Source of the DNA: Candidatus Woesebacteria bacterium
Lineage (GTDB): Bacteria > Patescibacteriota > Microgenomatia > UBA8517
Direction of reading: 5' to 3'
NCBI GenBank assembly: GCA_016432525.1
Contig: CP066693.1
Coordinates: forward strand, 30,017 to 94,016
DNA: 64,000 bases
The notes beneath the pieces were generated by a model. The model saw only the letters and a program-made list of their open reading frames with translations, was not told where the DNA came from and did not search any database. Both the position numbers and the translations under genes were made by a program. Of this stretch, positions 7,935 to 39,722 are shown one piece after another (within the stretch, counting starts at the first letter, position 1; every line of letters starts with the position of its first letter).

Positions 7935-10900
7935 TTACTTTCTTCTTCGAGCTTTGTCAACAATAACTAAAAAAACAAAGCCAAAAATCATGACCATTCC
8001 TAAAAATTCCAAAGTCTGAGGCCAATAAAATATTACTAATTTATAGTGCCCTTTCGGCAAAATCCAGCCATTTTCCCAAGAATTAACTTTAACATGGGCA
8101 CTCGCGGGCAAGCTAATCCATCCTTTATCATATCCCTGAGGCAAAGAAAACAAAGAATTATCTTTCAAAACATTAAGATCAAATTCATACCAAAATGTTC
8201 CAATTTTACGAGAACTATTAACCTGAACCAAATTCTCTTGTGGCTGTATGTTTCCATCAAAAACCTTCAAATTTGACAACCAGTTTAAAGGAATAGAGTA
8301 AAGATAAACGCCATCCAGATAATTTAAAGAGTCCTCGCCTCCCAACGATCTAGTCTCAAGATTCAAGATAAATTCATTTTTGGCAAAATTAACAGATTTC
8401 AAAAGACCAAAACTTTGATCAAATTTTCCGGAATTTAAAAGCATTTCAAGATCATTATTATTAGTTGCCTTATCGAATACATAAAATTTCATTCCGCGAC
8501 CAGTTACATTTTCTCCAACTAGTCTTAAAATAAAATCATTATCTGTCGCTACATTGGAAATGTTTGAGAAGTCACAAGAAGCACCTCTCCCAGAAGCCTC
8601 ATAAAAAAGTCTTCCAGATATTGTTTTCTTATAAACTTCACCTCTTTGTAAAACATCGCAATTGGAGGGCGAGTTTCTTCCAGTTTTTGAAAAATCTACT
8701 TTCTCAGGCTTGACTGGAAATGTAACCTCAAGCTCGTCTCCTTTATTAAAACTAACATCAATTGCTCGATCACTATTAAAGCCGTTCCAAATACCAGAAA
8801 AGCTAAAGCTTCCAATTTCGGGATATGAAAAAACTTTTGGTGCTTTGTAAGAAATATTCCATGTCTCGCCGCTCTTTTCAGACGGTCTTGCCGAAACCAC
8901 TAACCAATAATTTTTCCCCGAAGAAACCAAAATCTGCCTTGTAACTTCACTCCACTCAGTTGATACAAAACTGTGATAAAAAACATCGTTATTTAAACAA
9001 TCTGACCGACCTTCAATAACTATACAAAAATCCGGCCTTGATTCGCTAACTGATTTATAAGGCAAACTAACTTCCAAAAGTGATTCAGGGCTTCCCTGAA
9101 ACTCCCCCAATCTAAGAGAAGCGCACCCAATTGCATCGCGACTTGTAAAATCAATTTGATCTCCATTTACCTTAAATCCTATCGCCCCAGATCTGCCTTC
9201 TCTTTCCCAACATTTGTTTATCGAAGATGTCAAAAAAAGACTGGTCAGATCAATGCTTTTTCCATTTGATGCGTCAAAAACTTTCACCTGAACGCTTTCC
9301 TTTGTATCTACTCTAACTCCAGATATATTTATTGTTTCATTATTTTTTAGATAAAAATAAGTATTTGAAATTCCAATAGCAACCTTTGAATAATCATTTC
9401 TTACATCAATTAAAATCGGCTTAATATTACTTAATTCAATTAGCTCCTGATTTCTCTTGAACATATAAGGATTATTAAACTCAATCTTGATTTGATGGTT
9501 CTCGTAACTTGCTTTTCCAGAAAGATCAACATAAGTTTGAGAATTCAAAGATGGCAGAAAAAGTTTGGAAAGTATCCCTTCAATCTTTCTCTTGATAGAT
9601 ACATATTCTGCTCCACCAATATCATGAGAATAGTCAATTCCTGTAATTTCTTCTCTCAATACATCAGAAAAAGGATACTGATTATTTACTTTTATTGAAG
9701 ACGCATAATCAGAAACATTCTCAAAAACACTATCTTTACGCACTAAATTACCACTACTTTCCACATTTGAATAAAAGGCTGGCTGCTCTTGTTTGCTAAA
9801 TTGAAAAACCGTCAAAAAATCTTTTTGAAAAACTATTTTTCCACCAATACTTTCAAAAATCGCAAGTGATTTATCAAATTTAAATACATCACGGTCCGCT
9901 TCTGGATAAATAACACTTTTATCCATCAAAACATAAGTAACATTATATTTTTTAATTACATTCAAAACCCCAGTCGCATCTTCTGCGTAAACTGCCGTAT
10001 TTATCTCATGGTAAAAGCTCTCATCAGAATTACTCCAGACATCAAATGCACGATCTAAAATAGGCTGTGGAATTCCATACCAAAGAAATCCAGATCCACG
10101 ATATCCCCAAGTGTAAAAATTCCAACCCCAAAAAGTCTGTACAGGATAAAAAGCAATTCGCCCCTGCTTATCTTGATTTTTAAAATAGTCAAAAAGAGAA
10201 AAATACTGCTTTGGTATATCAATTCTCATAGTTGGGGATATTAAATATCCTTGAAAAACAGGTTTTGCAAATACTAAAGTCCCTGAAATAATTAAAGAAG
10301 CTACCACAAACAAAAGTATTTCTTTCTTCAAAAATCTTGATACCAAAGCCAAAAAAGAAGCTATTCCTATCGAATAAATTAATGCCATCAATACCGCCCA
10401 TTTAGTGAAGACTGAGCGAAATATTTGATCAAATAAAGGCAGTGGTAAGCTTCCTCCCATCATCAGGTAAAAACCCAAAACAAATACAAAAAATATTGAA
10501 GATCGGACATTAAGTTTTTTGTTAAAAAGCAAATAAATTATTCCAATCAAAGAAATTCCAAAGATCAAATATCCTACAGCTAAAGTATTCGAAGTTAAAT
10601 ATTTCTTCCAGTAATCATATAAGTAAGTGAACTTATTATCCCTCCCTAAATCAGTATATTCAAGCCAAAATCCACGTAAAGTTGAAACACTCGCTAAATT
10701 TCCAAAGCCCTTATTCATAAGCTGGGTTTCCGGCGTTGATAAAACATTAATTTTTGAGGTTGTGACAACCGAAGAATTTGTCAGAGTAAAATATAAAACT
10801 GGAAATAACCAAAAGGAAGTTGCTATAAACAAAGTCAAAAAAAGTTTTAAGACTCTTTTAATCCCCGTCTTTTTTAATCTAAAAATTGTCTCAATTGCAA

Positions 10901-11501
10901 AAGCTACCAAAATTACAGCAAGAACAACAAAAAGAGTTTGCACATAAAACGATGTTGCGCCAACAATTAGAAACGAAAATAGCAAAATTAAATCTCTTCT
11001 CTTACCAGCTGTTAGATATTTAATTGAAAAATAGATAAACCAAGGCAAAAAACCATAAAAACTCACAAAAGCTTCATATGGATTGTAAAAATTCTGAACT
11101 GTTGCAAGATTTAAAAGATAATATAAAGCCGATGTAAATGAAATTAATCCAGACCCTTTTTTAGTCAATACATACACTCCAAATGGGCCCAAAAATAGCA
11201 TCCCAAATGTCCAAAAATATCTCAAAAAATTTTGCGGCAGAACTGCCGATGTCAAAAATAAAAACAGCTGTCGTGGCAAATCCGCTGCATGGGCCATTCC
11301 CCCTAAAAGCCCCAGTCCCTGATATTCTTGCCAAACTGCAGAAATAGACCTAGATATATTTACCCCGAAATTAAATTCAGGATGTAAATTATCCCAACCT
11401 GTAAGATAAGTTCCCGGAGTGTAATTTCTAACACAAACTATAAAAATAACAATAAAAAGCAAGACAGGGTAAATTGAAAAACGTTTTAAAAAGTTAACCA
11501 T
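7935..11501 (-). CDS. Very large (1188 aa) polytopic membrane protein. The N-terminal half has about 12-14 transmembrane helices and may be a GT-C/YfhO-like glycosyltransferase (not established); the C-terminal half is a large extracytoplasmic domain.
   Basis: A long uninterrupted ORF. Dense hydrophobic helices run through about residue 430. Large hydrophilic loops are rich in Y/W/N. I cannot place the fold reliably from sequence. Confidence 0.7.
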   Translation of the reverse strand: MVNFLKRFSIYPVLLFIVIFIVCVRNYTPGTYLTGWDNLHPEFNFGVNISRSISAVWQEYQGLGLLGGMAHAADLPRQLFLFLTSAVLPQNFLRYFWTFGMLFLGPFGVYVLTKKGSGLISFTSALYYLLNLATVQNFYNPYEAFVSFYGFLPWFIYFSIKYLTAGKRRDLILLFSFLIVGATSFYVQTLFVVLAVILVAFAIETIFRLKKTGIKRVLKLFLTLFIATSFWLFPVLYFTLTNSSVVTTSKINVLSTPETQLMNKGFGNLASVSTLRGFWLEYTDLGRDNKFTYLYDYWKKYLTSNTLAVGYLIFGISLIGIIYLLFNKKLNVRSSIFFVFVLGFYLMMGGSLPLPLFDQIFRSVFTKWAVLMALIYSIGIASFLALVSRFLKKEILLFVVASLIISGTLVFAKPVFQGYLISPTMRIDIPKQYFSLFDYFKNQDKQGRIAFYPVQTFWGWNFYTWGYRGSGFLWYGIPQPILDRAFDVWSNSDESFYHEINTAVYAEDATGVLNVIKKYNVTYVLMDKSVIYPEADRDVFKFDKSLAIFESIGGKIVFQKDFLTVFQFSKQEQPAFYSNVESSGNLVRKDSVFENVSDYASSIKVNNQYPFSDVLREEITGIDYSHDIGGAEYVSIKRKIEGILSKLFLPSLNSQTYVDLSGKASYENHQIKIEFNNPYMFKRNQELIELSNIKPILIDVRNDYSKVAIGISNTYFYLKNNETINISGVRVDTKESVQVKVFDASNGKSIDLTSLFLTSSINKCWEREGRSGAIGFKVNGDQIDFTSRDAIGCASLRLGEFQGSPESLLEVSLPYKSVSESRPDFCIVIEGRSDCLNNDVFYHSFVSTEWSEVTRQILVSSGKNYWLVVSARPSEKSGETWNISYKAPKVFSYPEIGSFSFSGIWNGFNSDRAIDVSFNKGDELEVTFPVKPEKVDFSKTGRNSPSNCDVLQRGEVYKKTISGRLFYEASGRGASCDFSNISNVATDNDFILRLVGENVTGRGMKFYVFDKATNNNDLEMLLNSGKFDQSFGLLKSVNFAKNEFILNLETRSLGGEDSLNYLDGVYLYSIPLNWLSNLKVFDGNIQPQENLVQVNSSRKIGTFWYEFDLNVLKDNSLFSLPQGYDKGWISLPASAHVKVNSWENGWILPKGHYKLVIFYWPQTLEFLGMVMIFGFVFLVIVDKARRRK

Positions 11502-11514: not shown

Positions 11515-12855
11515 TTATTCTCTAACAAATTCCGGAGAGTATAAAGTAGTTCCAGAGAGAACAGCAGGGTTTATACATACAAAATCATATTTCAAAGAAA
11601 CAAGATTCCAGCTTCGCCCCATTGAAATTTCTGCTCCAGCCAAAGACAATTTTTTCTGCAAATCTGTATCCTTTATTAAATTTATAAGTCGACTTTCAAG
11701 AGATCTTTTTCTCATCGAGAAAATTATACTTTCTTTATTTATTAAATAATTTTTTAGACTATTTTGAATATCGCTCTCTTCAAAGTTAGATGAAAATTTT
11801 TGCGAAACCAAGATAGGTTTTGCGTACTGAAATGCTAAAGAAAGAGCACCGCTTGCTGACATACGAGCTCTATATGGAAATACAACTAGATCCGAAGCTG
11901 CAAAAACAGATTTAACTTCACTTTCAGCTACAAATGCCAAGGAAATTACATTTTTCTTATCTAAATTTATTAATCTATTCAATTTTTTAGAAAATTGAAA
12001 ATAAGATAAGGTACCTCGAAGAGTTGGGCTTTCTCCACCTGCAAGCAAAAGCCTTATTTTGAGTCTGGGATTTTCCTTGGCTATTCGAGAAAGGCAAGAC
12101 ACTATAAAATCAGTTCCCTTATAAGCTGATCTATATCCAAAAGCAAGCACAATAAATTCATCTTTTTTAACTCCAAATTTTTCTCTTGAACTAGCTCTTA
12201 AAAAAGGTGAAAGCCCCTGGTAAGATTCACTTCCATGCGCAATAACAAAAATCTTATTTAAGCTAACATGCTTTGACAATCGTTTCTTTAAAAAATTGTC
12301 ATGAACAATAAAAGCATTTGCAGATAAATTCATAAATTTATAAAAAATAGACAAAAATCTATTTAACACAAAAACTTTAAATCCGTGTCTTTTAATTCCA
12401 AGATGAGCTGAAAGTTCATTCAAATCATTTGAAACCTGATGAATTGCAATACTTACAAACTTCCCTCTTCCCTTAAGTGAGCAAAGATAGAAAATTAAAG
12501 GAAAAAGCGTAATTTTACCTCCATATATACTAAACTCAAATTGCAGATTAATAGAGCTTATTTTAGAAAATTGACGAATAATTTTCTCCATTTGTAAAAA
12601 CATCAATGGATTGCCCAAAGTATAAGTTGGCATAACCAATATATTGCCATTGATAATATAAGGGTCAGTTTTTTCTCTTTTTTCGCAAACAACAACTATT
12701 TTTCTGTTTGCTGGAAAGGCTGATAAAAGAAGTTTAGTGTATCGACAAATTGCATTATCAGACGCAACTTCTCCACCCTCGCTTGGAAATGAAGAAATAA
12801 CCAAAAGGGCATCTTCTAAATTAAATTGATTGATTATTTGATCTGTTAATTTCAT
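11515..12855 (-). CDS. Family-4 glycosyltransferase (GT-B; GT4/GT1-type).
   Basis: C-terminal GT-B signature with paired Glu/acidic residues (…LVVFPYRARMSASGALSLAFQYAKPILVS…, EX7E-like). The size and a Rossmann-like N-terminal half fit. Confidence 0.65.
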   Translation of the reverse strand: MKLTDQIINQFNLEDALLVISSFPSEGGEVASDNAICRYTKLLLSAFPANRKIVVVCEKREKTDPYIINGNILVMPTYTLGNPLMFLQMEKIIRQFSKISSINLQFEFSIYGGKITLFPLIFYLCSLKGRGKFVSIAIHQVSNDLNELSAHLGIKRHGFKVFVLNRFLSIFYKFMNLSANAFIVHDNFLKKRLSKHVSLNKIFVIAHGSESYQGLSPFLRASSREKFGVKKDEFIVLAFGYRSAYKGTDFIVSCLSRIAKENPRLKIRLLLAGGESPTLRGTLSYFQFSKKLNRLINLDKKNVISLAFVAESEVKSVFAASDLVVFPYRARMSASGALSLAFQYAKPILVSQKFSSNFEESDIQNSLKNYLINKESIIFSMRKRSLESRLINLIKDTDLQKKLSLAGAEISMGRSWNLVSLKYDFVCINPAVLSGTTLYSPEFVRE

Positions 12856-12896
12856 TTTTCAAAGTTGGCAAAGAAGAATTTGTAAATTTTGAAAAT

Positions 12897-12958
12897 TGCC
12901 GCGCATGTCAATCAGAGTCTTTCTTGTTAGAAAGTTTTGTCTCTAATTGACAGCGCGG
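12897..12958 (-). terminator. Nested inverted repeat downstream of the 12990..14144 gene; candidate intrinsic terminator or structured element.
   Basis: The outer arms ttGCCGCGCATGTCAAT … ATTGACAGCGCGGgt enclose an inner hairpin CTTTCT-tgtt-AGAAAG. On the minus strand the structure is followed by TTTTCAAAATTT. Confidence 0.35.
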
Positions 12959-12989
12959 GTGCTAGCTAAACTAGCGCTAAGGCATACTG

Positions 12990-14144
12990 TTAGGAAATCG
13001 TGATCGGGGCAAGGCCGTCAATGCCGGTCGGAGTAACAACGTCACCAACCTGAAGGCCAATAACCTTCAAATTGTCATTCGTGATCCAACCTGTCATCTT
13101 CGACATATCCCAAAATTGCGGGAACTCAACGGCCAAGACCTGGTCTTGCAAATCCACACTTTCGTGTGTCTTGTCGAACATCTCGGCGGTCCAGTTGCGC
13201 GTACCACTAGCGCGGATCAAAACCAAGGTATTGCACCCGGTCTGCCCAACGCTCGCGGTAAACGACTTTGCATCCTCATCCAGAATCCCATTCACCGACA
13301 CCAGCGTCGGGTTATCGATCATCGCGCATGATGCACTTTTCGGATCAGGTGACTTGACATCACTCTCGCCTGTCCCAAACTCGACAGTTGTCCCGTCGCT
13401 TTTGTGAAGGACAATAGGCCAATTGTAAGGCTTGTCAGCCTTCAACATGTTTTGGCGCTTCGCCATCACAAACTCGAGGGCAATCGACGGTTTGTTCAAA
13501 GAGTTCGGATCCTGATCCATGTTCCAACCTGGGTCATACGCCCAAATCGAACCTTCAGCGTAGTCGAAAAAACCATTTGTCGCTGAAAGAACAGATTTGT
13601 TCGCAAGCCCATTGGCCCTTAAAACCCAGATGTGGTGTTTGGACTCTTTCAGGTCCTGACGGCCTTCAATCAAAAGGTTACAACCGTTAGCAACAGAGTC
13701 CACCAGATATAACTTGGTGTCAAACCGTAGAGTGTTGGCAACAGGCGCGGTAATCCGTTTACCAGTACCCTTGATATCACACACAGGATACTTAAGAACA
13801 GGCTTTAAAGCCTCTTCAACCGCAGCCAAGTTGGCAACCTTCTCGCTCATCCAAGCCGCACGAACGTAGTGGCCGTCCTTATCAAACAGTCGGGCCAAAA
13901 CCCAGCTATCTCCGCCGACCTGCTTGCGGGCGTTTACCTCAACATAACCGTCAGCTGGTGCAACCGCAAGTTGAGCGCTCGACGAAAGTGCCGAAGCTCG
14001 CATGTTGGTCGGGTTCCCAACCTTGTAAAGGGCGGGAGCCACCCAAGTGACAGTAGCAGGCTCCTGAGCCTTAACCGGCATGCTGCCAATCAAAAGCCCA
14101 ACGACAAAAAGAAAAACGAATACGAAAGTCAGACGCTTGTTCAT
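12990..14144 (-). CDS. Secreted hypothetical protein (384 aa) encoded in a higher-GC islet.
   Basis: Signal peptide MNKRLTFVFVFLFVVGLLIGSMPVKAQEP. The coding sequence is clearly richer in G+C than the flanking genes (12990..15027). I recognise no motif. Confidence 0.6.
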   Translation of the reverse strand: MNKRLTFVFVFLFVVGLLIGSMPVKAQEPATVTWVAPALYKVGNPTNMRASALSSSAQLAVAPADGYVEVNARKQVGGDSWVLARLFDKDGHYVRAAWMSEKVANLAAVEEALKPVLKYPVCDIKGTGKRITAPVANTLRFDTKLYLVDSVANGCNLLIEGRQDLKESKHHIWVLRANGLANKSVLSATNGFFDYAEGSIWAYDPGWNMDQDPNSLNKPSIALEFVMAKRQNMLKADKPYNWPIVLHKSDGTTVEFGTGESDVKSPDPKSASCAMIDNPTLVSVNGILDEDAKSFTASVGQTGCNTLVLIRASGTRNWTAEMFDKTHESVDLQDQVLAVEFPQFWDMSKMTGWITNDNLKVIGLQVGDVVTPTGIDGLAPITIS

Positions 14145-14181
14145 TTTATCCTCCTCTTAGGACGATCAAAGACACACGATA

Positions 14182-14511
14182 CTAGCCAGCAGGAGTAGCT
14201 TTCTGAATCTGCTCCTCTATTTGCTGGGTTTGCTTAAGAAAATCAGCAGTCAATATCAGCGGTGTACTAGTCTCAGTCGACACCAAAGTAAATGTCTCAC
14301 TAGGTTGAATTGTTGGAACAATAATCGGCGTCGCCGACGATGTATTTGTCAGCTCCAATGTAGCACTTGGTTCAATGACACGTGATGTCATTGTCTTGCC
14401 AATCACTTTCACTTCCATCGTAGTGTGCAGTTGAAATCCTGCAAGTGAAACGCAAAGAAAAGCAATAACAAGAAGCGCACTCCAAGAAGCAATCAATTGT
14501 TTTCTGTTCAT
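14182..14511 (-). CDS. Small N-terminally membrane-anchored hypothetical protein (109 aa) in the higher-GC islet.
   Basis: N-terminal hydrophobic helix (LIASWSALLVIAFLCVSLAGF) followed by a Thr/Ser-rich segment. It is co-directional and closely spaced with its neighbours. Confidence 0.45.
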   Translation of the reverse strand: MNRKQLIASWSALLVIAFLCVSLAGFQLHTTMEVKVIGKTMTSRVIEPSATLELTNTSSATPIIVPTIQPSETFTLVSTETSTPLILTADFLKQTQQIEEQIQKATPAG

Positions 14512-14523
14512 GTCCCCTTAGCC

Positions 14524-15027
14524 CTATCTCATGGCAATAGCCAAGATAAAAACGATAGCGCCTCCAAAGGACAATCCAAAGAAAACAGATCCGAGGACAA
14601 TTTCCCACCACTTGAAAGTGATGAGTCCTCTCTGCTTTCGCTCAAGGCGATCGAGCTGTTGTCGCATTTGCGCGACAAAATCAGTGATCAGAATGTTCTG
14701 TTGCTTTCCGTCTGTCTGAACCGTAACCGAAAGAGCTTCGGCCATTTGTCCTGAAAGCCGCCTTGCGATCTCATCAGCAACCTTATCCATTACCTCCTCG
14801 TCTGACATCGATCGAGTTGGTTCAGCGAACGGGTCATGAGCTGCTGACAAAGGCTGAGCAACTGGTCTAACAATCCGCGGCGGATTTGACATCGATCTTG
14901 AAGTCGTCCTATGCGGACCACCAGCTGACACTGGTCCAGGATCAAGATCTCTAAAGATCCCATCAATATCAGAAACAACCTGCTCTTTTTTTGGATCTTT
15001 TTTAGATCCGTGTCCAAAGATACCCAT
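14524..15027 (-). CDS. Hypothetical protein (167 aa) with a C-terminal transmembrane anchor, in the higher-GC islet.
   Basis: Hydrophilic, partly disordered N-terminus. The C-terminus is a transmembrane helix (WWEIVLGSVFFGLSFGGAIVFILAIA). First gene of the three-gene high-GC unit. Confidence 0.45.
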   Translation of the reverse strand: MGIFGHGSKKDPKKEQVVSDIDGIFRDLDPGPVSAGGPHRTTSRSMSNPPRIVRPVAQPLSAAHDPFAEPTRSMSDEEVMDKVADEIARRLSGQMAEALSVTVQTDGKQQNILITDFVAQMRQQLDRLERKQRGLITFKWWEIVLGSVFFGLSFGGAIVFILAIAMR

Positions 15028-15091
15028 CTTATCCTCCGCTTGAATTTCGTATACAATATTCGGGATTTATTCCCAAAATTATGCCTTATTT

Positions 15092-15382
15092 TTAATGTAC
15101 TTTGTTAAATTTATTTGATAGATAGAATAACGCAATTGAACCAAAAATAAAGCCAGCTCCAATTAAAGGTAAATTAATATCTCCTATAGCAGTTGGTGCA
15201 GGACGAAACACTTCCTCTGTTGGAGTTGAAACACCACAAACTACCCCTCCACCATATTGAGTTACACAATTTTCTTGCGCAAACGCAATTTTAGGAAAGG
15301 CAATCAATGTTATTACTGTAATAGCTGTTAGAATAAATTTCTTCATATTTTCAAAAATATATATGACTGAGTAGCATATCAT
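15092..15382 (-). CDS. Small secreted protein with a sortase-sorting-signal-like C-terminus; candidate sortase substrate. The start is probably the internal MKKF.
   Basis: Signal peptide MKKFILTAITVITLIAFPKIAFA. The C-terminal tail is NLPLIG-AGFIFGSIALFYL-SNKFNKVH. This is an LPxxG-like motif, then a hydrophobic stretch, then a basic tail. It lies immediately downstream of a sortase gene. Confidence 0.45.
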   Translation of the reverse strand: MICYSVIYIFENMKKFILTAITVITLIAFPKIAFAQENCVTQYGGGVVCGVSTPTEEVFRPAPTAIGDINLPLIGAGFIFGSIALFYLSNKFNKVH

Positions 15383-15403: not shown

Positions 15404-16132
15404 CTAAATCTCTAATAACTTTCCGTAAGCAAATACACGAACTGGAGAATTTAAATCATTACATGTATACAAAATCAAATCTGCTGAAAAATCGGATACA
15501 TTTTCGCCAACCGCTACTCCATAGATTGCATAAATATATTTTCTCTGACGCCATGTTATTTCAACTGTATCCCCTGGTTGAAGTCTTGGTAAATTGTAAA
15601 AAGAATTAAGATGGCGATATGTATTATCCCATGAAAGATATCCAAATCTGTGTGCAGCCAAAATTAAAGGAAGGCTTCTATCATAAGCTGTGCCATATGA
15701 AGGATCTCTCCAAACTCCCTTTTTCAAGGCATCTTCATAATTAGCCTCCGCTGCCTCATTAATAGCAGTATTTACTCCAATTGAAGAAATAGTAATCCTA
15801 TTTTCATTTGAAAGTTGAGAATTCTTTGGAGGCTGATAGTTAGATTTTCTTCTAATCCAGCTTTGTTTTTGCTCCTCTAAAGGTTTAACCTCGTCCTGAG
15901 CTTTAGATGAAGGCAAAGATTGGGTAGTGCTTTTGGCTGAAATCTTATACAAAACAGAAGGTCCGTATGATAATAAAAGTACTAGAATTCCCAAAATTGC
16001 AAAAACCAAAGATGCTTTCTTAAGAATCTTAGACATACTAAATTTCCCTGATTTTTGAGATACCTCACTCAAGGCTATTTTAGAGAAATCAGTTGCTGGA
16101 ATATATCCAGGATAATTATTTATGTAGTTCAT
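15404..16132 (-). CDS. Sortase-family transpeptidase. The start is probably the internal Met near 16036 (MSKILKK…).
   Basis: N-terminal transmembrane anchor. Conserved His context (LILAAHRFGY). Catalytic Cys in a TLxTC-like motif (LILYTCND). Downstream conserved Arg (RVFAYGKL). Confidence 0.7.
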   Translation of the reverse strand: MNYINNYPGYIPATDFSKIALSEVSQKSGKFSMSKILKKASLVFAILGILVLLLSYGPSVLYKISAKSTTQSLPSSKAQDEVKPLEEQKQSWIRRKSNYQPPKNSQLSNENRITISSIGVNTAINEAAEANYEDALKKGVWRDPSYGTAYDRSLPLILAAHRFGYLSWDNTYRHLNSFYNLPRLQPGDTVEITWRQRKYIYAIYGVAVGENVSDFSADLILYTCNDLNSPVRVFAYGKLLEI

Positions 16133-16526: not shown

Positions 16527-17846
16527 CTATTTTCGAAGGAAACGCTTTATAATCTCAGATACGTAAGAAAAACTTTTGGGAGAGGCAATCATTTTATATC
16601 CAAGCCTTTTAGCCTCTTTCACTCTTTTAGCCTCAGAAAAAACACCTCTTATTTCTCCCAAAAGCCCAACCTCACCAAAACAGACAAACCCTGAAGGAAT
16701 CGCTTTATCAAAATAAGAAGAAGCAATACATAAAGCAATTGCAAGATCAGCTCCAGGCTCGCGAATATTTATTCCCCCAACCACATTCACAAATACATCA
16801 AAATTCTGGATTGGAATTCCACATCTCCTCTCAAGTACCGCCAAAATCACATCAATTCTTCGTGCCTCAATTCCCTGCACAACTCTTCGAGGGTACATAA
16901 GCTTTGTTGGAACAATTAAAGATTGTATCTCAACAATTATTGGCCTTGTCCCTTCCATCAAAACACTTCCACAAGTTCCAGATACTCTTTTACTTTCTTT
17001 ATCCAAAAACATATCAGATAAATTGGCAACAGACTCAAGCCCATTCTCCTTCATTTCAAAAATCCCAACCTCATCAGTTGCTCCATATCGATTTTTGTAT
17101 GCTCTAATCATTCGAGTTGCCAAATTTTTGTCTCCTTCAAACCACAAAACAGTATCAACTAAATGTGCCAAAGTCGCAGGCCCTGCCACATTTCCCTCTT
17201 TAGTTACATGACCAACAATAAAAGTTGGAATTCCGGTTTTCTTTGCCATTCTAACAATCCTGTAAGTAGACTCTCTAACCTGCCCAACCGATCCAGCCAT
17301 TCCAGACAAATCGCTTGTTGAAACAGTTTGGATAGAATCAATTACCAGTGCAGAAGTCTTCTTGTTTCCAGAAGAATTTGTAACCGTAGATAAAATCGAA
17401 TCAATATCGCTTTCCTCAATAATACTAATACTTTTATTCTTGACTTTTAGTCTGTCAGCTCTGATTTTAATTTGATTAACTGATTCTTCAGACGATGCAT
17501 AAAGACAATTGTCCAAGTTGTCACAAACTTGCAAAAGTATTGTTGATTTTCCAATTCCAGGCTCTCCAGAAAGTAGAATCACCTGTCCTAGCACTAATCC
17601 TCCACCCAAAACCCGATCAAGCTCAGATATTTTTGTTGAAACTCGATTTAATTTCTTTGAATTAACTGAAGAAAGTAAAATAGGTTCAACTTTTTTTCCA
17701 CCTTTCGCGCTAGTTCCAGACCCATCTGACTCTAAAACAGTTTCGACCATACTGCTCCATGCTCCACAATTTGGGCATTTTCCACTCCAACCAACTTGAG
17801 AGTAGCCACATTGTTGACAGACGTAGGAAGATCTTGCCTTTGCCAT
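16527..17846 (-). CDS. radA: DNA repair protein RadA/Sms.
   Basis: N-terminal C4 zinc ribbon CQQCGYSQVGWSGKCPNCGAWSS. RecA-like Walker A GEPGIGKST. KNRYG motif and a Lon-protease-like C-terminal domain. The ORF extends to 18038, but the true start is the MAKARSSYVCQQCG Met. Confidence 0.9.
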   Translation of the reverse strand: MAKARSSYVCQQCGYSQVGWSGKCPNCGAWSSMVETVLESDGSGTSAKGGKKVEPILLSSVNSKKLNRVSTKISELDRVLGGGLVLGQVILLSGEPGIGKSTILLQVCDNLDNCLYASSEESVNQIKIRADRLKVKNKSISIIEESDIDSILSTVTNSSGNKKTSALVIDSIQTVSTSDLSGMAGSVGQVRESTYRIVRMAKKTGIPTFIVGHVTKEGNVAGPATLAHLVDTVLWFEGDKNLATRMIRAYKNRYGATDEVGIFEMKENGLESVANLSDMFLDKESKRVSGTCGSVLMEGTRPIIVEIQSLIVPTKLMYPRRVVQGIEARRIDVILAVLERRCGIPIQNFDVFVNVVGGINIREPGADLAIALCIASSYFDKAIPSGFVCFGEVGLLGEIRGVFSEAKRVKEAKRLGYKMIASPKSFSYVSEIIKRFLRK

Positions 17847-17925
17847 AGGCTCATTATGCCACAAAAAAACGGCAGGCAACACTTTATAAAAACAAGTGTG
17901 CGCTGCCGCAACAAAAATAAACTCA

Positions 17926-18501
17926 CTACACAGTTGCATAAACTGTCCCCATCGGTAGAACCATTCCGTAAACTCTGCGCTCTCGCCTTGCATCAATGGC
18001 CAACTTAATCTGCAAAGCCTCTGGGTGCCCAGGCGCATATTTCAAAACAAATCTTATGCTATTTAGAGCACCTGGACGATTATTCTCTCGAACGAATCGC
18101 CTTGCATCCTCAAGATGCTGCACTATCAATATCTCTCTTTGAGCCTTTAGCTCCATTGCCTGCTTTTGAGCAGCCAGCTCAATGCGAGAGAAAACACAAC
18201 TCGCCTCCTCAAGCCAATCCCACAAATCAGAAATAAAATTGAAACGAGAAGGGAAATATATGCCATAGCTTCGAGCTCTTTCAATCCTTTGCTCTAAGCA
18301 AATGGCCGGCTGCTCTGGTTTTACCCAGATTGTTGCAGCGCAACATTCAATTGCCCCAGCCAGTTCATATCGAATCAACTCGATGCGCCCTTGCAAATGA
18401 TCGGGCTGTTCCCACAGATCTCCAAAGGAAAACTCAATTCCTATCGCCTTGGCCTCAGCAACAGCTTCAGCTAGAAAATTTTGAGACATGGTTTCCTCCA
18501 C
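17926..18501 (-). CDS. Hypothetical protein (about 190 aa) with noticeably higher GC than its neighbours.
   Basis: An uninterrupted ORF between radA and rpsA. G+C is visibly above the local roughly one-third background. I recognise no motif. Confidence 0.45.
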   Translation of the reverse strand: MEETMSQNFLAEAVAEAKAIGIEFSFGDLWEQPDHLQGRIELIRYELAGAIECCAATIWVKPEQPAICLEQRIERARSYGIYFPSRFNFISDLWDWLEEASCVFSRIELAAQKQAMELKAQREILIVQHLEDARRFVRENNRPGALNSIRFVLKYAPGHPEALQIKLAIDARRERRVYGMVLPMGTVYATV

Positions 18502-19737: not shown

Positions 19738-19862
19738 TCTTTCGGCCTTGACCTATTTTCTCGTAAGGTTGCCCAAAAAATATCGTCGGCGCTAAAGCGT
19801 TTTACGACTCTGTTCGGAATGGGAAGAGGTAGTTCCACTTCGCTCAAAAAGCCGAAAGAGCA
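19738..19862 (-). rRNA. rrf: 5S rRNA.
   Basis: The reverse complement contains 5S core motifs (CCATTCCGAAC…GTAAAACGC…TAGCGCCGA) aligned to the E. coli 5S segment CCCATGCCGAAC…GTGAAACGCCGTAGCGCCGATG. Helix I closes as CTTTCGGC/GCCGAAAG. It lies just 3' of the 23S on the same strand. Confidence 0.6.
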
Positions 19863-20202
19863 AAAAACACAATCCTACCTACACAGGCAGATTTTATACT
19901 CTGATTACTGAAGAGAAAGGTTCGCATTAATTCGATCTATTCGCACTGGTAAGCTTAACGCCTTACGGCGCTTCCACTGCCAGCCGATTAACCTGGTGTT
20001 CTTCCAGGGATCTTATAGAGTTCTAATCTTGGAGTTGGCTTCCCACTTAGATGCTTTCAGTGGTTATCACATAGGAATGTAGCTACCCGGCGCTGCTACT
20101 GACGTAACAACCGGCACACCAGGGATTCCTCCAGCCTGGTCCTCTCGTACTAAGGCTAGCTCTCCTCAAAACTCAAAACGCATGTACTGGATAGAGTCCG
20201 AC

Positions 20203-21032
20203 ATTATTGTTACATCGATTATTCGATGGTCTCGTCATTTTCATTCTGCGAGACTCCCATTGTCGCCAACAGGGTCCGACCATATCTTGTCGTTTAAAAA
20301 AAACGACTCTGGCGTATGGCCTGTGAGGATTCTAATTTATATATGATTTAAGAATTTGCTCTCTGGACACCCTTCTTTTACGAGTATTCATAGAATATGC
20401 AATTTCTAAAATTCTTTTTATTCCACTTTTTTTTAAATGCTCTTTATTATTCACAAGTTGAATAACTTGCTTGAATTTTTCAAAAGCATCCTTTTTAATA
20501 ACAAACTTGTTATCAAAAAATGGAATAACCTTGTCTCTCAAACTTGGCAAATCACGTACAACAAATGCAAGTGAATTGTCATTTTTATCAGTTAAACTAT
20601 TTGCTTTAATATAGCCACAAAATAACCTCTCTTTTAATTTTTCCAAAACTTGCCTTCCAGCAGGATTTTGAGAAACCTTAAAAAAATAAATTACTTGCCA
20701 ACCAGTTTTTGTTTCTTTCGAAGGAACTATACCTATGTAAAACATCCCTTCTCCTTCAACAAAACCTGCAAAATAATCGTCACTAATAAATTGAGACATA
20801 TAAATTAGCCTTTCCTGCTGATAATCTCAGGTTAATGATTTTTACTAGTACACAAATTGTACACTAGTACACTAATATTTTACGAGACTTTCCAGCATAT
20901 AGCCAGATTTATATTCCTTTATTTAATTATCTAGACAAAAAGATAAACATTTTCTACTTCGAATCAGTTTGTTCAACGTCAAAAGGATGAGACCGCTCTT
21001 AGACTTGTCAACACCAAATGTCTTAGGTGTTC
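20203..21032 (-). mobile_element. Intron in the 23S rRNA (presumed group I) inserted at the I-CreI-type site after …GAGACAGTT; it carries a LAGLIDADG homing-endonuclease ORF.
   Basis: The rRNA match runs up to aactgtctc (21033..21041) and resumes at gagtccgac… (about 20202), matching E. coli 23S CGTCGTGAGACAGTT^CGGTCCCTATC. The intervening 830 nt are not rRNA-like and contain ORF 20332..20799. Confidence 0.7.
20332..20799 (-). CDS. LAGLIDADG-family homing endonuclease (single-motif type) encoded in the 23S intron.
   Basis: N-terminal motif FAGFVEGEGMF, a LAGLIDADG variant. About 155 aa, basic C-terminus, nested inside the rRNA gene. Confidence 0.85.
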   Translation of the reverse strand: MSQFISDDYFAGFVEGEGMFYIGIVPSKETKTGWQVIYFFKVSQNPAGRQVLEKLKERLFCGYIKANSLTDKNDNSLAFVVRDLPSLRDKVIPFFDNKFVIKKDAFEKFKQVIQLVNNKEHLKKSGIKRILEIAYSMNTRKRRVSREQILKSYIN

Positions 21033-21655
21033 AACTGTCTCGCGACGTTCTGAACCCAGCTCACGTAGCACTTTAATGGGCGAACAGACCAACCCTTGGA
21101 AGCTTCTACACCTCCAGGATGTGCTGAGCCGACATCGAGGTAGCGAACCGCGCCGTCGCTATGGACGCTCGGGCGCGACTACTCTGTTATCCCCGGGGTA
21201 GTTTTTATCCGTTAAGCTCCGTCCCAACCCATGAGGGATCGGAGGATCACTAAGACCTGCTTTCGCATCTGCGCGGCATGTCTGCCTTGCAGTCAAGCAC
21301 TCTTATACCTTTACGCTTACACTACGATTTCCATCCGTAGCAAGAGTACCTTTGTGCCCCTGCGTTACAATTTAGCAGGGTACCGCCCCAGTAAAACTGC
21401 CCATCTAGCACTTTCCCCTCCCACGTTTTCAGAGGGATTGGGTGAGATTCATCGTATTTCAAAGAGAGGTGTTACATTGTTGTCCCGCTAAGCGGGACTC
21501 CCTCCTACGCTACACAGTTAAAATCGATAAATCAATGCCAAACTACAGTAAAACTCCACGGGGTCTTTTTGTCCAAGTACATGTAGGCCGCGTCTTCACA
21601 GCCACCGCAATTTCGCCGAGTAGAGGCTTAAGACAGTTATTAGCTCGTGACGCCA

Positions 21656-21687
<32 letters not shown>

Positions 21688-22526
21688 CTTCGCTACCGTA
21701 GAACAGTTATAGTTACTGCTGCCGTTTACTGGAGCTTGAGTTCAGAGCCAGTACACCCGAAGGTGCAAAGACCCCTCCCCTTAACTTACCAGCACTGGGC
21801 AGGCGTCAGCCCGTATACATAAGATTAACTCTTTTGCACGGACATGTGTTTTTGATAAACAGTCGACTAATAAACTTTAGTTGCATCCCGCTAAGCGGGA
21901 AACCCATCTCCCTAAGTTACGGGTAATTTTTTTGCCGAGTTCCTTAAACCTCTTTCTCTCGCTCGCCTTAGTCTTCTCGACCAGCCCACCTGTGTCGGTT
22001 TGCGGTACGGCTTAATTTGTCTCTCACTGCGAATTTTTTCTTGTAAGCTAAATTAGCTAAAATCACCCCGCTATTCGCGAGACTTTGCACCACCTAAACT
22101 AAACATCGAAACGGATTTTCCAATCTCGACTATTTTGGCTTCTGCACGTCATTTCACAAAGACGCTTTAGAAATCTAACTCAGTCAATCCCCAGCTGATA
22201 ACGATACAAAATAAGTACTAGAATTTTAACTAGTTGTCCATCGGTTACGCCATTACGGCCTCACCTTAGGTACCGACTAACCCGTCGAGGACGAACCTCG
22301 CGACGGAAACCTTGGGCATTCGGCGGTCCTGATTCTCACAGGACTCGTTCGCTACTCATACCGGCATTCTCACTTCCAACCGCTCCACCACACTTTACAG
22401 TATAGCTTCACAGCTGTTGGAACGCTCCCCTACCACTCCTTTACACCCAAAGGTGTAAAAAAATCTCAAGCTTCGGCACTAACTTTAATCCTCGATAAAT
22501 CTTCGGCGCGTGCGCTCAGTCGACCA

Positions 22527-22585
<59 letters not shown>

Positions 22586-23156
22586 ATGAACGACACACTT
22601 CCTTTCAAACTTAAGTTAGATTTAGAGGCCTTAGCTGTGAGTCTGGATTCTTTTCCTTTAGTCGCATCAGCTTAGCCCGATGCGGCTGTCTAGTCGCCCA
22701 TATTTCAAGTTATTCGGAGTTTGATTGAATCAAATTGCTTGCGCTCTCTGACCCATCCAGTGCTCTACCACCCTGAAATTTTTGACGACCACGGTCCCTA
22801 TAGACCTTTCGGGGAGAACCAGCTATCTCCGAGTTCGATTGGCATATTACCGCTATCCACAAGTCATCCGATGTTATTGCAACAACAACCGGTTCGGGCC
22901 TCCTCCTGTATTTCTACAGGACTCACCCTGCTCATGGCTAGATCACTCGGTTTCGGGTCTATTCTAAGCTACATAATTGTTCGGGCTATTCACCCTAGCT
23001 TTCACTTTGCCTTCTCCCGCTAAACGGGATTAAGCTGCAGCATAAAATAACTCGCCGGTTCATTCTTCAATAGGCACGAGATCACCCCCATCGCTGAGAG
23101 CTCTCTCGGTTTGTCCGCAAACAGTTTCAGGTTCTATTTCACTGAGCGTTCCGCTC

Positions 23157-23198
<42 letters not shown>

Positions 23199-23844
23199 CG
23201 CACCCTTATTTAGTCTTGGAGGATGGTTCCCCCGGATTCCCACAGAGTATGTACTCCATGGTACTTGGGATACTTCTAGAGGTTTTTTTGATTTCGCATA
23301 CGAGGCTTTCACTCTCTATGGCTTGATATTCCAAAAAATTCTGCTATCGCAAAAACTCTCATATTAAAGTCCCGCAACCCCTTCGTGATGCAAGCATCAC
23401 GAAAGTTTAGACTGTTACCATTTCGCTCGCCGCTACTTCGGTAATCTTTGTTAATTTCTCTTCCTCACCCTACTTAGATGTTTCAGTTCGGGTGGTTCCC
23501 TCCATACACCTTAGTAATTCCGATAAATCGAAATATTTGGGGCATAGGTCCCCGATAAATCGAGGGGGTTTTCCCATTCGGACATCGCCGGATCAAAGCT
23601 TCGTGGCAGCTCCCCGGCGCGTTTCGCGCGCCATGTGCGTCCTTCTTCGGAAGATGCGACCTAGGCATCCACTGTCTGCGTTAGTATTAAACTGCGACCT
23701 TTCTCTTCAGATGTCAAAGTACAAACCATAATTATTAGTTATCCGTAAATAAGCTCTAACTAAAGTAAAGCCAATTTACCAATAACCAATCAATCTTGTG
23801 GACCGTTCTGTCCAGCTCTTTTTTAATGTATTCACGACCTTAAG

Positions 23845-23918
23845 TGGACCTGAGCGGGATCGAACCGCTGACCTCATCATTGCAAATGATGCGCTCTATC
23901 CAGCTGAGCTACAGGCCC
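23845..23918 (-). tRNA. tRNA-Ala (anticodon TGC).
   Basis: Reverse complement GGGCCTGTAGCTCAGCTGGATAGAGCGCATCATTTGCAATGATGAGGTCAGCGGTTCGATCCCGCTCAGGTCCA. G3:U70. Anticodon loop TTTGCAA. It occupies the canonical spacer position 5' of the 23S. Confidence 0.9.
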
Positions 23919-24162
23919 TCGACCTGTCGCCTTAGGCGACCGTTTTGGCCAGCTGAACTATCGGCCCGTAAATAAAATGTGCAACAAAAAACCGACACTA
24001 GGTCGGTCATCCGATACAAGCCACCCCAAAAAGGGAGTTGCGCTTATTAAAAATTATTAAAAAAAATTCCTTTGCTCATCAATAATTCAATCGGATACGT
24101 TACCTAAAATTAGGTTAAGGCAAATTATATATTTATTAAAGCTAATAGTCAATTAGTATTTG

Positions 24163-24234
24163 TGGGCGCGCATGGGATCGAACCATGGACCTCTTTCTTA
24201 TCAGGAAAGCGCTCTACCACTGAGCCACGCGCCC
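24163..24234 (-). tRNA. tRNA-Ile (anticodon GAT).
   Basis: Reverse complement GGGCGCGTGGCTCAGTGGTAGAGCGCTTTCCTGATAAGAAAGAGGTCCATGGTTCGATCCCATGCGCGCCCA. Anticodon loop CTGATAA. Canonical Ile–Ala spacer tRNA pair. Confidence 0.9.
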
Positions 24235-24326
24235 AAGCTCAACTAGTTTACCTCAAATTGGCCTTAAACTCAACGAACATGCTATAATAGACCCATAATC
24301 CGCAGTTTGACAGAAAGGAAACGGGT

Positions 24327-24638
24327 ATGTTCAGAGATTTTGGTGATAGTAGAACCAGAACCAACCGTCCAATTTTCAGTTCTAACCAAATTAAAAATGT
24401 TTCTGAGCTCAAAAGAGGAATGAAAGTGCTTGTGTGTTCAAGTCTTAAAAACCATAAAAGCTACGTTGCCATCTTAACAATCAGCCCAGACCAAAACGAA
24501 AAAGGAGAATGGTTTATACATTACAAAAGAGAAGAAGACAAGATCGGGCTGGAAAGTCGCACTTTCCTTTGCGACCACAGCGTTGTTTCTTACGAAGACG
24601 GTAGATGGAACAACGCCAACTGGTTAGAAAAGATTTGA
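24327..24638 (+). CDS. Hypothetical protein (103 aa) encoded within the rRNA spacer region on the opposite strand.
   Basis: ORF with an upstream purine-rich stretch (acagaaaggaaacgggtATG). I recognise no motif. Confidence 0.4.
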   Translation: MFRDFGDSRTRTNRPIFSSNQIKNVSELKRGMKVLVCSSLKNHKSYVAILTISPDQNEKGEWFIHYKREEDKIGLESRTFLCDHSVVSYEDGRWNNANWLEKI

Positions 24639-24643
24639 TTTTT

Positions 24644-24681
24644 GCCCCTCTAAAGAGGAAAACTTTCTCTTCTAGAGGGGC
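24644..24681 (+). promoter_or_regulatory. Perfect 9-bp-stem hairpin immediately upstream of a TATAAT-like box and the 24702 start codon.
   Basis: GCCCCTCTA-aagaggaaaactttctcttc-TAGAGGGGC followed by tcgTATATAATacaattagtATG. It may act as a terminator for the upstream ORF and/or an operator or leader structure. Confidence 0.3.
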
Positions 24682-24701
24682 TCGTATATAATACAATTAG
24701 T

Positions 24702-26975: not shown

Positions 26976-27192
26976 TAAAAATGTATTAGAGATAAACGGC
27001 AAACCTCTCCTTTGCAGATGAGCGAAAATCGGTGCTTACTCGTCAATTGAAGGCCGTAAGTCTCCGAGGAAGAAGTTTGATGCATAAATTGCATAAAATG
27101 TATTCATCAAACACCTCAAACTTCTTCCTCTCCTTTTTTTAAAAAACTTTAAAATACTCCCATAGTCAACAAATAACTGGAGGTACCTTAAA

Positions 27193-27696
27193 ATGTCCAA
27201 GTTAGTCATGGCAATTGCCATATTCACGTCAATCTTTTTCGTATCGCTACCAATTCACGCGCAGGAAAATCTAAATGTTACAGTTTCTGCATCAGAGCTT
27301 CCACAAACAGGAACAAAAATTCTCGCAACAATGAATAATGGAATCAGCTTCGCGTTCGTCTCAAAAGACGAAAGTGGAGGGTGTGTCCAAATTCGTTGGT
27401 CAAACATAGCTATAAAATGCTTTGACAGAAGCACCTTGGAAAAAATTGTGATAACAACTATTCCATCTGGAGAAACACAGTATTTGAGTTTCTCCATAGT
27501 TGTCTTTAGAAAAGGAAACCTAGCTAAAGGAATCGATAGTATTTCTTCAGAAACCAAGCTGACAGAACTCGTCAAAGGCATCAAAAACCTCTTTAAAAAC
27601 GTAGCAGAATTGCTTGAAGCAAGAGATATTCATTGTATTGCAACTGCGGCTGCAGAAACTAAATCGGTCACCTTAGACATTTGGACAGAAATATAG
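27193..27696 (+). CDS. Secreted hypothetical protein (167 aa).
   Basis: A good ribosome-binding site (ctggaggtacc) 7-8 nt upstream. Signal peptide MSKLVMAIAIFTSIFFVSLPIHAQE. A terminator-like hairpin follows directly. Confidence 0.5.
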   Translation: MSKLVMAIAIFTSIFFVSLPIHAQENLNVTVSASELPQTGTKILATMNNGISFAFVSKDESGGCVQIRWSNIAIKCFDRSTLEKIVITTIPSGETQYLSFSIVVFRKGNLAKGIDSISSETKLTELVKGIKNLFKNVAELLEARDIHCIATAAAETKSVTLDIWTEI

Positions 27697-27705
27697 AATA
27701 AACCA

Positions 27706-27753
27706 AAAACCCGCTTTCAAGACGAGATTGTTCTCATCCCAAAAGCGGGTTTC
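27706..27753 (+). terminator. Inverted repeat after the 27193..27696 gene.
   Basis: AAACCCGCTTT-caagacgagattgttctcatccca-AAAGCGGGTTT followed by ctctttg. An 11-bp stem with a long loop and a weak T tract. Confidence 0.4.
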
Positions 27754-27999
27754 TCTTTGACCACCAAGACCATGACTGAAAGTGTGACTCGGTTATTTTC
27801 CTTAAATCAAAAAGACTTAAGGATAGCCTTAACCGTTGTCTAAAAGACTGGGTGTAAAAATTCACACTCCTTAGAAAGGAGGTGATCCATCCCCACCTTC
27901 CAGTAGGGATACCTTGTTACGACTTAATCCTCATCGCTGGTTTCAACTTCCTCCGATTCAATCGAAGTTCGGCTGCCCCCAACTTTGCTGACTTGACGG

Positions 28000-36467: not shown

Positions 36468-36471
36468 AATA

Positions 36472-36499
36472 AAAAAAGCTGCAATCAGCAGCTTTTGAT
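36472..36499 (-). terminator. Bidirectional intrinsic terminator between the hydrolase and AbiEii-like genes.
   Basis: aaaaaaAGCTGCaatcaGCAGCTtttga. The minus strand reads AGCTGC-tgatt-GCAGCT-TTTTTT. Confidence 0.5.
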
Positions 36500-36542
36500 C
36501 AATTGTATCACTTTTTGCTTCGATTCGAACGCAGAAGATGTT

Positions 36543-38353: not shown

Positions 38354-38383
38354 ATGACAATATGATACACCTTGTCTCTTTTT

Positions 38384-38611: not shown

Positions 38612-38654
38612 ATCCTAATCGTAGAGACTGTGAGTATCATTCTCGACATACTCC

Positions 38655-38987: not shown

Positions 38988-39153
38988 GAAAGAAGTTGAA
39001 ATCAAAGCAGAAAGTTACAAGGCAATCAAATGCACAACGAGGGCTCAAACTCAAGGAAGGGCAATACTACGCTGTATTTGTGCCGAAGAAACACTGATCT
39101 GCTACAATACAATTAACTCCTCCACTTCGATTGATCCTCCTGTTGAAAAGATT

Positions 39154-39696: not shown

Positions 39697-39722
39697 GCAG
39701 CCTTTCATGGCTGCTTTTTTTA
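39697..39722 (+). terminator. Intrinsic terminator after the TerS-like gene.
   Basis: GCAGCC-tttcatg-GCTGC-TTTTTTTat. Confidence 0.5.

Follow-up and report, generated by a model that had tools for sequence, protein, structure and literature searches.

A conserved, fast-diverging surface-protein unit with a persistent G+C offset and a co-varying frame in Woesebacteria-type bacteria

Atypical G+C content is routinely read as a sign of horizontal transfer, and a 64,000-nt stretch of a Candidatus Woesebacteria genome (GenBank assembly GCA_016432525.1, contig CP066693.1, positions 30,017–94,016; hereafter the window) contains a locus that invites exactly this reading. Three minus-strand genes, encoding proteins of 167, 109 and 384 aa, form an islet of higher G+C content in AT-rich surroundings, and a first-pass annotation, made from the sequence, suggested that they are an acquired host-interaction or immunity module. 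Is the islet foreign, and if it is not, what sets it apart from the genes around it? We find that it is a conserved, fast-diverging surface-protein unit of an unnamed protein family, with a G+C offset that persists across the family and a frame of complementary sequences that co-vary. The family of the 384-aa protein is labelled FAM here. The genomic context of its loci was recovered from independent JGI, ENA, NCBI and Logan assemblies, and 18 loci were compared. Bacteria of the Candidate Phyla Radiation (CPR) are thought to live attached to other cells, and both their surface proteins and the control of their expression are little known.

A conserved slot with a family-wide G+C offset

The FAM gene occupies the same slot in 16 of the 18 loci. 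The shared order runs through ribosomal protein S1, RadA, a sortase, a small protein of about 84 aa, FAM with or without accessory genes, a GT1-family glycosyltransferase (GT1), a membrane protein of about 1200 aa, Rho and a LysM/M23 protein, and the orientation of the unit is identical in all 18 loci. The exceptions to this order, L010 and L023, still place FAM beside glycosylation genes. In L023 it adjoins a homologue of the large membrane protein, whereas in L010 it adjoins other genes of the GT-C type and is not linked to a membrane protein of the 1188-aa type, which accompanies FAM in every other arrangement. In the closest relative of the window (L003), FAM lies directly between the small protein and GT1, without the 167-aa and 109-aa genes, and the slots of L005, L012, L015, L025, L026 and L028 are likewise free of accessory genes. 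Elsewhere, the slot holds 256-aa and 102-aa membrane proteins (the L006/L019–22 clade), a 695-aa protein (L008) or other accessory genes (L007, L016 and L018). A scan of genome contigs with the GT1 protein gave only one unrelated match. The first-pass annotation had itself set conserved synteny in relatives against its proposal and had suggested a comparison of presence and absence; such synteny is what the 384-aa gene displays, being found in the slots of relatives, whereas the 167-aa and 109-aa genes are specific to this genome. We consider that the islet is probably, though by no means certainly, a single unit of expression filling a fixed slot within the envelope-biogenesis locus of a Woesebacteria-type CPR lineage.

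Past FAM and outside the bracket described below, stretches of L016 (2848–4693) and L018 (10731–12580) encode a lipoprotein (160 or 173 aa, with a G+C content at third codon positions, GC3, of ~0.6) and a 396–411-aa protein with a twin-arginine-like signal, which is 58% identical between the two loci.

The description of the islet as close to half G+C in AT-rich surroundings was borne out by computation, with values of 0.43–0.51 in the islet genes (Table 1) against 0.31–0.34 in the flanking genes, whose GC3 is 0.18–0.26. The whole window has a G+C content of 0.383, and apart from the islet only the 23S and 16S rRNA genes form patches close to 0.5. The composition is thus atypical with respect to the flanks, yet the offset extends to the entire family. 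FAM GC3 lies above flank GC3 in each of the 18 loci, with a mean difference of +0.21 (range, +0.04 to +0.33), and is correlated with it (Pearson r = 0.71), its extremes being 0.33 in a host with a flank GC3 of 0.15 and 0.75 in a host with a flank GC3 of 0.46. Since the offset is present at every locus and tracks the host, it is a property of the gene family and no mark of recent import, and the usual inference from atypical G+C content to horizontal transfer fails here. A single GC-rich donor pool is ruled out as its source, given that FAM GC3 follows that of the flanks over the whole of this range.

In the codons of FAM, third-position A drops from 0.31 to 0.10, and AGA, GGA and ATA are almost gone. 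AAG, GAG and CAG are favoured, and the Lys, Glu and Gln tRNAs of the window carry UUU, UUC and UUG anticodons; moreover, GC3 is low in the genes for ribosomal protein S1 and Rho. Translational selection for high GC3 is rejected on the combination of G-ending codons with UNN-anticodon tRNAs in the window and on the low GC3 of these two genes, which indicates that the shift is compositional rather than translational.

FAM also changes much more quickly than its flanks, by divergence and at times by exchange, which is what an exposed protein would lead one to expect. Between the window and L005, FAM proteins are 26% identical, compared with 47–83% for the neighbours, and between L016 and L018 the value is 31% for FAM, 55% for GT1 and 58% for an accessory gene. 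The relation is reversed between L011 and L013 (66% for FAM and 51% for GT1), and the pattern of FAM similarity as a whole disagrees with that of the flanking genes. At the DNA level, the contrast between the window and L003 is modest, with the core 70–85% and the flanks 60–70% identical. L011 (1008–1210) and L013 (1247–1450), which represent two divergent populations in metagenome Ga0272448, share a tract of ~200 nt that is 96–99% identical, starts exactly at the FAM stop codon and runs ~95 nt into GT1, the DNA on either side being 50–65% identical. This tract, which is itself not GC-rich, documents recent recombination, one end of which coincides with the border of the unit.

Hypervariable surface-structure loci, such as O-antigen loci, capsule loci and flexible genomic islands, are flanked by conserved genes, and the islands are usually AT-richer than their host. 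The FAM slot resembles such loci in being a fixed spot between conserved envelope genes, with divergent content, variable accessory genes and signs of recombination at its border. Unlike them, it always holds one homologous family, and its G+C content deviates upward in every genome.

Complementary arms around the unit

The unit is framed by two short sequences that are complementary to each other. In the window, the upstream arm directly follows a conserved motif, and its complement lies at the stop codon of FAM (Table 1). The two arms, 19 nt in length and 84% complementary, share an exact 9-mer (TAAGGCATA / TATGCCTTA) and form a bracket that encloses all three genes; 10 of 2000 shuffles do as well as this 9-mer, and the RNAduplex energy of the arms is −20 kcal/mol. 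One rule was then applied across loci, combining the motif, written as the regular expression G[CT][ACT]CA?TTT{0,2}A[ACT], with the 22 nt that follow it and a stretch of 45 nt at the stop codon. The expression had one upstream-intergenic match in 12 of 13 loci. Cognate pairs of arms contained an exact complement of 8–12 nt in 10 of 12 loci, while only 2 of 122 non-cognate pairs reached at least 8 nt. In three loci fetched afterwards, for which the rule was left unchanged, there was again one motif match each (3/3), with complements of 9, 8 and 13 nt. Overall, 13 of 15 loci comply, representing 7 of about 9 independent groups.

The sequences of the arms vary by clade and their complementarity is kept, the variants including GGCATA, TCAGCCTTA, ATCGAGGC, GAGAAAGG, TACTTACAGGTT and TTTACTTAT. 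A compensatory change converts ATCGAGGC/GCCTCGAT into ATCGAGGT/ACCTCGAT, and a C:G to T:A double change separates the L012 clade from L028. The arms are therefore complementary and co-vary. The motif is not enriched in the window, with 58 matches against 79 expected, which rules it out as a general promoter element.

A nested inverted repeat had been noted after the last gene, and it is real: the hairpin of the window departs from shuffled sequences with z = −6.0 to −6.6. A nested hairpin follows the FAM stop codon in 11 of 11 loci tested (z = −4.3 to −8.4), with different sequences and the same architecture, and it is probably a terminator or a 3′ stabiliser. The islet genes are also preceded by strong Shine–Dalgarno (SD) sequences (AGGAGG, GGAGG and, in the case of the 109-aa gene, the SD-like AAGGGGA), in a window where an SD match is missing from 27 of 47 genes and reaches at least 6 nt in only 3. 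Over 17 nt, the SD and start regions of the 167-aa and FAM genes share 88% identity. Just past the approximate 3′ boundary of the 16S rRNA gene, near 28829, the sequence is ...GTCCTCTAG in place of the canonical CACCTCCTT that one would expect there.

We propose that the unit would be expressed as one transcript, the 5′ end of which would pair with the sequence at the FAM stop codon, alongside the putative terminator. This helix would come apart when a ribosome reaches the stop codon and terminates, and the frame, the strong SD sites and the A-poor codons would together yield a stable, well-translated message. Pairing of the two ends of the unit at the level of the mRNA is the role of the arms that we favour and hold to be probable, considering that co-variation that keeps pairing but not sequence suggests an RNA helix more than a recombinase site. 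A role of the arms at the DNA level appears unlikely.

Comparable arrangements exist in other bacteria. In Staphylococcus aureus, the 3′ untranslated region (UTR) of icaR reportedly pairs with the 5′-UTR. In Bacillus subtilis, a 14-bp pairing of the 5′-UTR with the 3′-UTR of the hbs mRNA, together with a strong SD sequence, governs access of RNase Y and RNase J1 and the decay of the message (PMC5737220). As in these mRNAs, the complementarity framing the FAM unit is short and long-range, extending from the start of the unit to just past the stop codon, and is accompanied by strong SD sequences and a 3′ hairpin. In contrast to them, the loop would span 1.0–3.4 kb and could hold several cistrons, a conserved motif specific to the locus precedes the 5′ arm, and the putative pairing is kept by co-variation across the lineage. 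If correct, this would be the first lineage-wide case of mRNA end-pairing in CPR bacteria.

The FAM protein and the weighing of explanations

FAM is a small, real and unnamed protein family. When 1.84 billion cluster representatives were searched exhaustively with HMMER, the 384-aa protein had 48 relatives at E ≤ 0.001, of which 34 reached E ≤ 1e-10, and a word-indexed search of 5.8 billion proteins returned a single relative, 69% identical. No sequence match to the family was found in Pfam, NCBIfam or PDB, and our literature search found no paper describing the family or the locus. Every complete member starts with an export device, whether a signal peptide, a membrane anchor or, in at least 12 members, a lipobox, and continues with a spacer that is either an SH3b-like domain or a Pro/Thr/Ala-rich linker. 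The presence of an export device in every complete member indicates that the FAM core is always displayed at the cell surface.

The 384-aa protein was modelled with AlphaFold2 from a 49-sequence alignment (predicted local distance difference test score, pLDDT, 89.5; predicted template modelling score, pTM, 0.81). In this model, the N-terminal domain (~33–100) takes an SH3b fold. Pfam SH3_3 (PF08239) matches 4 of the 49 family members, with a best E-value of 5e-5, and the protein of the window gives no Pfam match. The SH3b-like domain may serve as the wall-binding tether of the protein. The ~260-aa core had no sequence or fold match among solved or viral structures when the full-length model was the query, and since it was searched neither on its own nor against the AlphaFold DB, its predicted structure can only provisionally be called a fold without known counterpart.

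Although the members are overall only 23–40% identical, the core has conserved cysteines (C122, C155, C273/274 and C304) and near-invariant residues (E160, G161, R162, H170, E197, W201, W207, N208, K229, Y240, G300 and P342). The core is probably disulfide-bonded, and the near-invariant polar residues in such a variable protein suggest a ligand-binding or catalytic pocket. These residues, and the fact that FAM is constantly linked to GT1, GT2 and GT-C-like genes, lead us to suppose that it acts on a polymer, of wall or glycan type, which the neighbouring glycosyltransferases produce. Its closest known counterparts are SH3b-targeted wall proteins, such as lysostaphin, ALE-1, NlpC/P60 endopeptidases, the R2ab repeats of AtlE, the GW domains of InlB and the binding domains of phage endolysins. 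FAM differs from them in that its core matches no M23, CHAP, NlpC/P60, amidase or lysozyme domain by sequence or fold, and in that many members swap the SH3b domain for a lipobox or a membrane anchor with a Pro/Thr-rich linker.

Anchoring of the 384-aa protein by a sortase was considered as well, but the protein has no C-terminal hydrophobic segment and hence no sorting signal of the LPXTG type. The 84-aa protein encoded upstream, with homologues in all loci, contains a Cys-containing QYGG/QYGQ stretch and a P-x-(E/T)-A-(G/I) stretch; it is laid out like a sortase substrate whose motif is not LPXTG, and is likely to be one. In Microgenomates, sortases are near-universal (PMC6744442). The locus therefore offers a concrete target for study, namely a conserved slot beside this sortase that encodes a putatively wall-tethered, fast-diverging protein with an uncharacterised domain.

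Taken further, these observations lead to a broader and clearly more tentative reading, which we regard as possible rather than probable. The most variable surface protein of this CPR lineage would be expressed from a self-contained cassette that protects its message, consisting of the motif, a pairing of the ends that would close the whole mRNA, of up to 3.4 kb and several cistrons, into a panhandle beside a nested terminator, SD sites that are strong for a genome poor in them, and a coding sequence held A-poor and GC-rich by RNA selection or biased gene conversion. The core of the protein would be a new fold acting at the wall or the host interface. Were this so, a persistent, foreign-looking composition could be an encoded property of a native gene.

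Several points count against our main explanation of the unit. The RNAduplex energies did not separate cognate from non-cognate pairs, no pairing was detectable in the L006/L019 clade or in L007, and L010 is without the motif. The regular expression was written after the first loci had been seen, so some overfitting is possible, although the test of complementarity is independent of it and the rule also succeeded in the loci fetched later. Many of the loci are interrelated, which reduces them to only about 9 independent groups, and the promoter, the 5′ end and the co-transcription of the unit are features that we infer, as are the stabilisation of the message and the biochemical role. Moreover, the G+C offset fits two causes alike: selection on the RNA, since messages that are A-poor and structured present fewer sites to nucleases, and GC-biased gene conversion (gBGC) at a locus prone to recombination. 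The novelty of the core fold is, as stated, provisional.

The alternative with which this study began, that the three genes are foreign, GC-richer host-interaction or immunity DNA acquired recently, draws on the distance in composition between islet and flanks, on SD usage unlike that of the neighbours and on the 167-aa and 109-aa genes, which are unique to this genome and absent from L003; the mobile region at 35–43 kb is also somewhat GC-richer than core genes. It does not hold for the 384-aa gene, which sits in the same slot in nearly all loci and is GC-richer than its flanks in all of them, with a GC3 that scales with the host. The borders of the islet have no integrase, tRNA or direct repeats, the phage, plasmid and IMG/VR collections contain nothing similar, and none of the three proteins has a PADLOC match, which leaves the immunity part of the claim unsupported. 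We therefore judge a recent acquisition of all three genes together to be very improbable, and of the host-interaction claim only the surface or host-interface role remains plausible, without the foreign origin of the main gene. Only slightly easier to defend, and still improbable, is the view that the inverted repeats are recombination sites of a DNA-level cassette that a site-specific recombinase inverts (phase variation) or swaps, with its G+C content raised by gBGC at a hotspot of recombination. The arms do bracket the whole unit, the near-identical tract of L011 and L013 begins at the stop codon and downstream arm, FAM similarity is at odds with that of the flanks, and recombination has been linked to higher GC3 in bacteria (PMC4450053). 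However, the arms measure only 8–13 nt and differ between clades while remaining complementary, which fits an RNA helix better; a single orientation is seen throughout, the shared tract is not GC-rich, and the only recombinase gene of the window sits in an element at 41–43 kb.

A less improbable alternative, which we nevertheless rate as doubtful, keeps the surface location but dispenses with an enzymatic function: FAM would be an abundant structural protein, such as part of a wall-associated layer or a glycoprotein substrate of the glycosyltransferases, and the G+C offset would arise incidentally from selection for very high expression. The strong SD sites, the large 3′ hairpin and the 5′/3′ pairing, as in the highly expressed hbs, agree with this, as does the constant linkage to glycosyltransferase genes. 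Against it stand the shift to G-ending Lys, Glu and Gln codons in disagreement with the tRNAs of the window, the low GC3 of the S1 gene, which is usually highly expressed, and the near-invariant Glu, His, Arg, Lys and Tyr residues, which suggest a defined pocket in so divergent a family. Pairing of the message ends around a native surface-protein gene thus remains the explanation that we prefer, and even if the unit should prove ordinary, a false call of a foreign islet has been removed and a new family with a genomic signature has been defined.

Known classes of mobile or variable elements were also compared with the islet. As in classical genomic islands and prophage cargo, its composition is atypical and it contains orphan genes. 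Unlike them, it has no att repeats, tRNA target or phage or plasmid relatives, and no mobility genes or flanking direct repeats were found at the islet; with the FAM gene present and syntenic in relatives, a genomic island is not supported for the 384-aa gene. A phage or plasmid origin was rejected after tblastn searches of phage and plasmid collections and four IMG/VR scans gave no match. There is no reverse transcriptase among the neighbours and no long direct repeat in or near the genes, which excludes the target of a diversity-generating retroelement. An integron cassette is excluded because the arm at the stop codon has its complement upstream of the unit and not after the hairpin, unlike the two core sites of an attC site, which pair with each other downstream of the ORF, and because there is no integrase. 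As for an invertible segment, inverted repeats are present at both ends, but all 18 loci show one orientation and no adjacent recombinase was found.

Gene neighbourhood and other features of the window

The features of the unit and its neighbours are listed in Table 1.

Table 1. Coordinates and composition of the unit, its framing sequences and its neighbours in the window
Feature	Position	Strand	G+C	GC3	Description
Sortase gene	15404–16132	minus			Pfam PF04203; fixed neighbour of the slot (synteny)
Small 84-aa protein gene	15092–15346	minus			Signal peptide, C-terminal membrane segment, basic tail; fixed upstream neighbour of the slot
Conserved motif	15092–15100	minus			GTACATTAA (GCACTTTAA-like); overlaps the last codons and stop of the 84-aa gene, directly 5′ of the upstream arm
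Upstream arm	15070–15088	minus			TAAGGCATAATTTTGGGAA (minus strand); complementary to the FAM stop-codon region
167-aa gene	14524–15027	minus	0.474	0.417	Hydrophilic N-terminal region, helical middle, C-terminal membrane anchor (141–167)
109-aa gene	14182–14511	minus	0.427	0.373	N-terminal membrane anchor (4–32), then Thr/Ser/Pro-rich tail
FAM gene (384 aa)	12990–14144	minus	0.510	0.574	Signal peptide 1–27, SH3b-like domain ~33–100 (modelled), ~260-aa core
Downstream arm	12978–12996	minus			TTCCTAACAGTATGCCTTA (minus strand); last two FAM codons, stop codon and 12 nt beyond
Nested hairpin	12899–12958	minus			18-bp outer stem CCGCGCTGTCAATTAGAG / CTCTGATTGACATGCGCGG, 6-bp inner stem CTTTCT / AGAAAG
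GT1-family glycosyltransferase gene	11515–12855	minus			Pfam PF13692; fixed downstream neighbour of the slot (synteny)
1188-aa polytopic membrane protein gene	7935–11501	minus			Linked to FAM in every arrangement but L010

All three islet genes stand as first annotated, and Kyte–Doolittle profiles agree with the topology assigned to them: the 167-aa and 109-aa proteins each have a single hydrophobic segment, C-terminal and N-terminal respectively, and the 384-aa protein begins with a signal-like segment ending in ...VKA/QE. The products are thus exported or membrane-anchored, in keeping with the idea of surface-exposed cargo. The statement that none of the proteins has a nameable motif also held, as none has a match in Pfam, PHROGs, NCBIfam or PADLOC, the matches of the 167-aa protein in PHROGs being marginal only. 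No paralogues of the three proteins were found elsewhere in the window. The setting in envelope biogenesis, near a sortase and a large membrane protein, is supported by the neighbouring genes, which encode the sortase, GT1, the 1188-aa membrane protein, a LysM/M23 peptidase, UbiA and Wzy_C/TPR proteins. Relatives of the 1188-aa membrane protein give weak matches to Glucos_trans_II and PTPS_related.

The two small genes differ from FAM in their distribution. The only database match of the 167-aa protein is itself, with no relative in the related loci, and the 109-aa protein has no homologue in any related locus or in IMG/VR; blastp and phmmer found no homology of either to the accessory genes of other loci. 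In architecture only, the pair resembles the 256-aa/102-aa pair of the L006 clade, which is stable across samples and combines a membrane protein whose helical domain is cytoplasmic with a small Ser/Thr-rich protein that crosses the membrane once. Both genes have SD sites, lie inside the bracket and have an intermediate GC3, and we regard them as passengers of the unit that are peculiar to this lineage and may have been either acquired or born in place. An 88-aa alternative-frame open reading frame (ORF) inside the 167-aa gene (14790–15056, minus strand; GC3 0.60) is probably an artefact of the higher G+C content and no gene.

A 191-aa orphan gene (17926–18501, minus strand; G+C 0.46, GC3 0.42) lies between the S1 and radA genes, and its product has no match in Pfam, PHROGs, NCBIfam, PADLOC or IMG/VR. 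Given that S1 and RadA are adjacent in L012, L018 and L019, this gene is another lineage-specific insertion. The 503-aa radA ORF (16527–18038) overlaps it, and the N-terminal extension of this ORF is likely spurious. At the beginning of the window, a 901-aa protein (4–2709, plus strand) contains four Laminin_G_3 (concanavalin-like lectin) domains; it is a putative surface protein of ordinary composition (GC3 0.31). Nearly all genes of the window are on the minus strand, and the GC skew of the plus strand is negative almost throughout 2500–64000, a bias similar to the strand disparity described in certain genomes of Microgenomates (PMC7143001).

The stretch 35259–42911, beside a tRNA-Gln gene (42838–42911), is probably an integrated element, with a GC3 of 0.34–0.45, above that of core genes. 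It encodes an AbiEii toxin (35259–36467), an alpha/beta hydrolase, a 2-hydroxyacid dehydrogenase, a 331-aa protein and a large serine recombinase (41047–42900). The rRNA genes are spread over 19740–30225, with the 16S gene (28829–30225) located 4.6 kb from the tRNA-Ile, tRNA-Ala and 23S (20963–24234) genes. The gap between 16S and 23S holds a LAGLIDADG endonuclease (28039–28575), a 167-aa ORF and a TraG/VirD4-like coupling ATPase (24702–26975), and a 155-aa ORF stands between the 5S gene (19740–19856) and the 23S gene.

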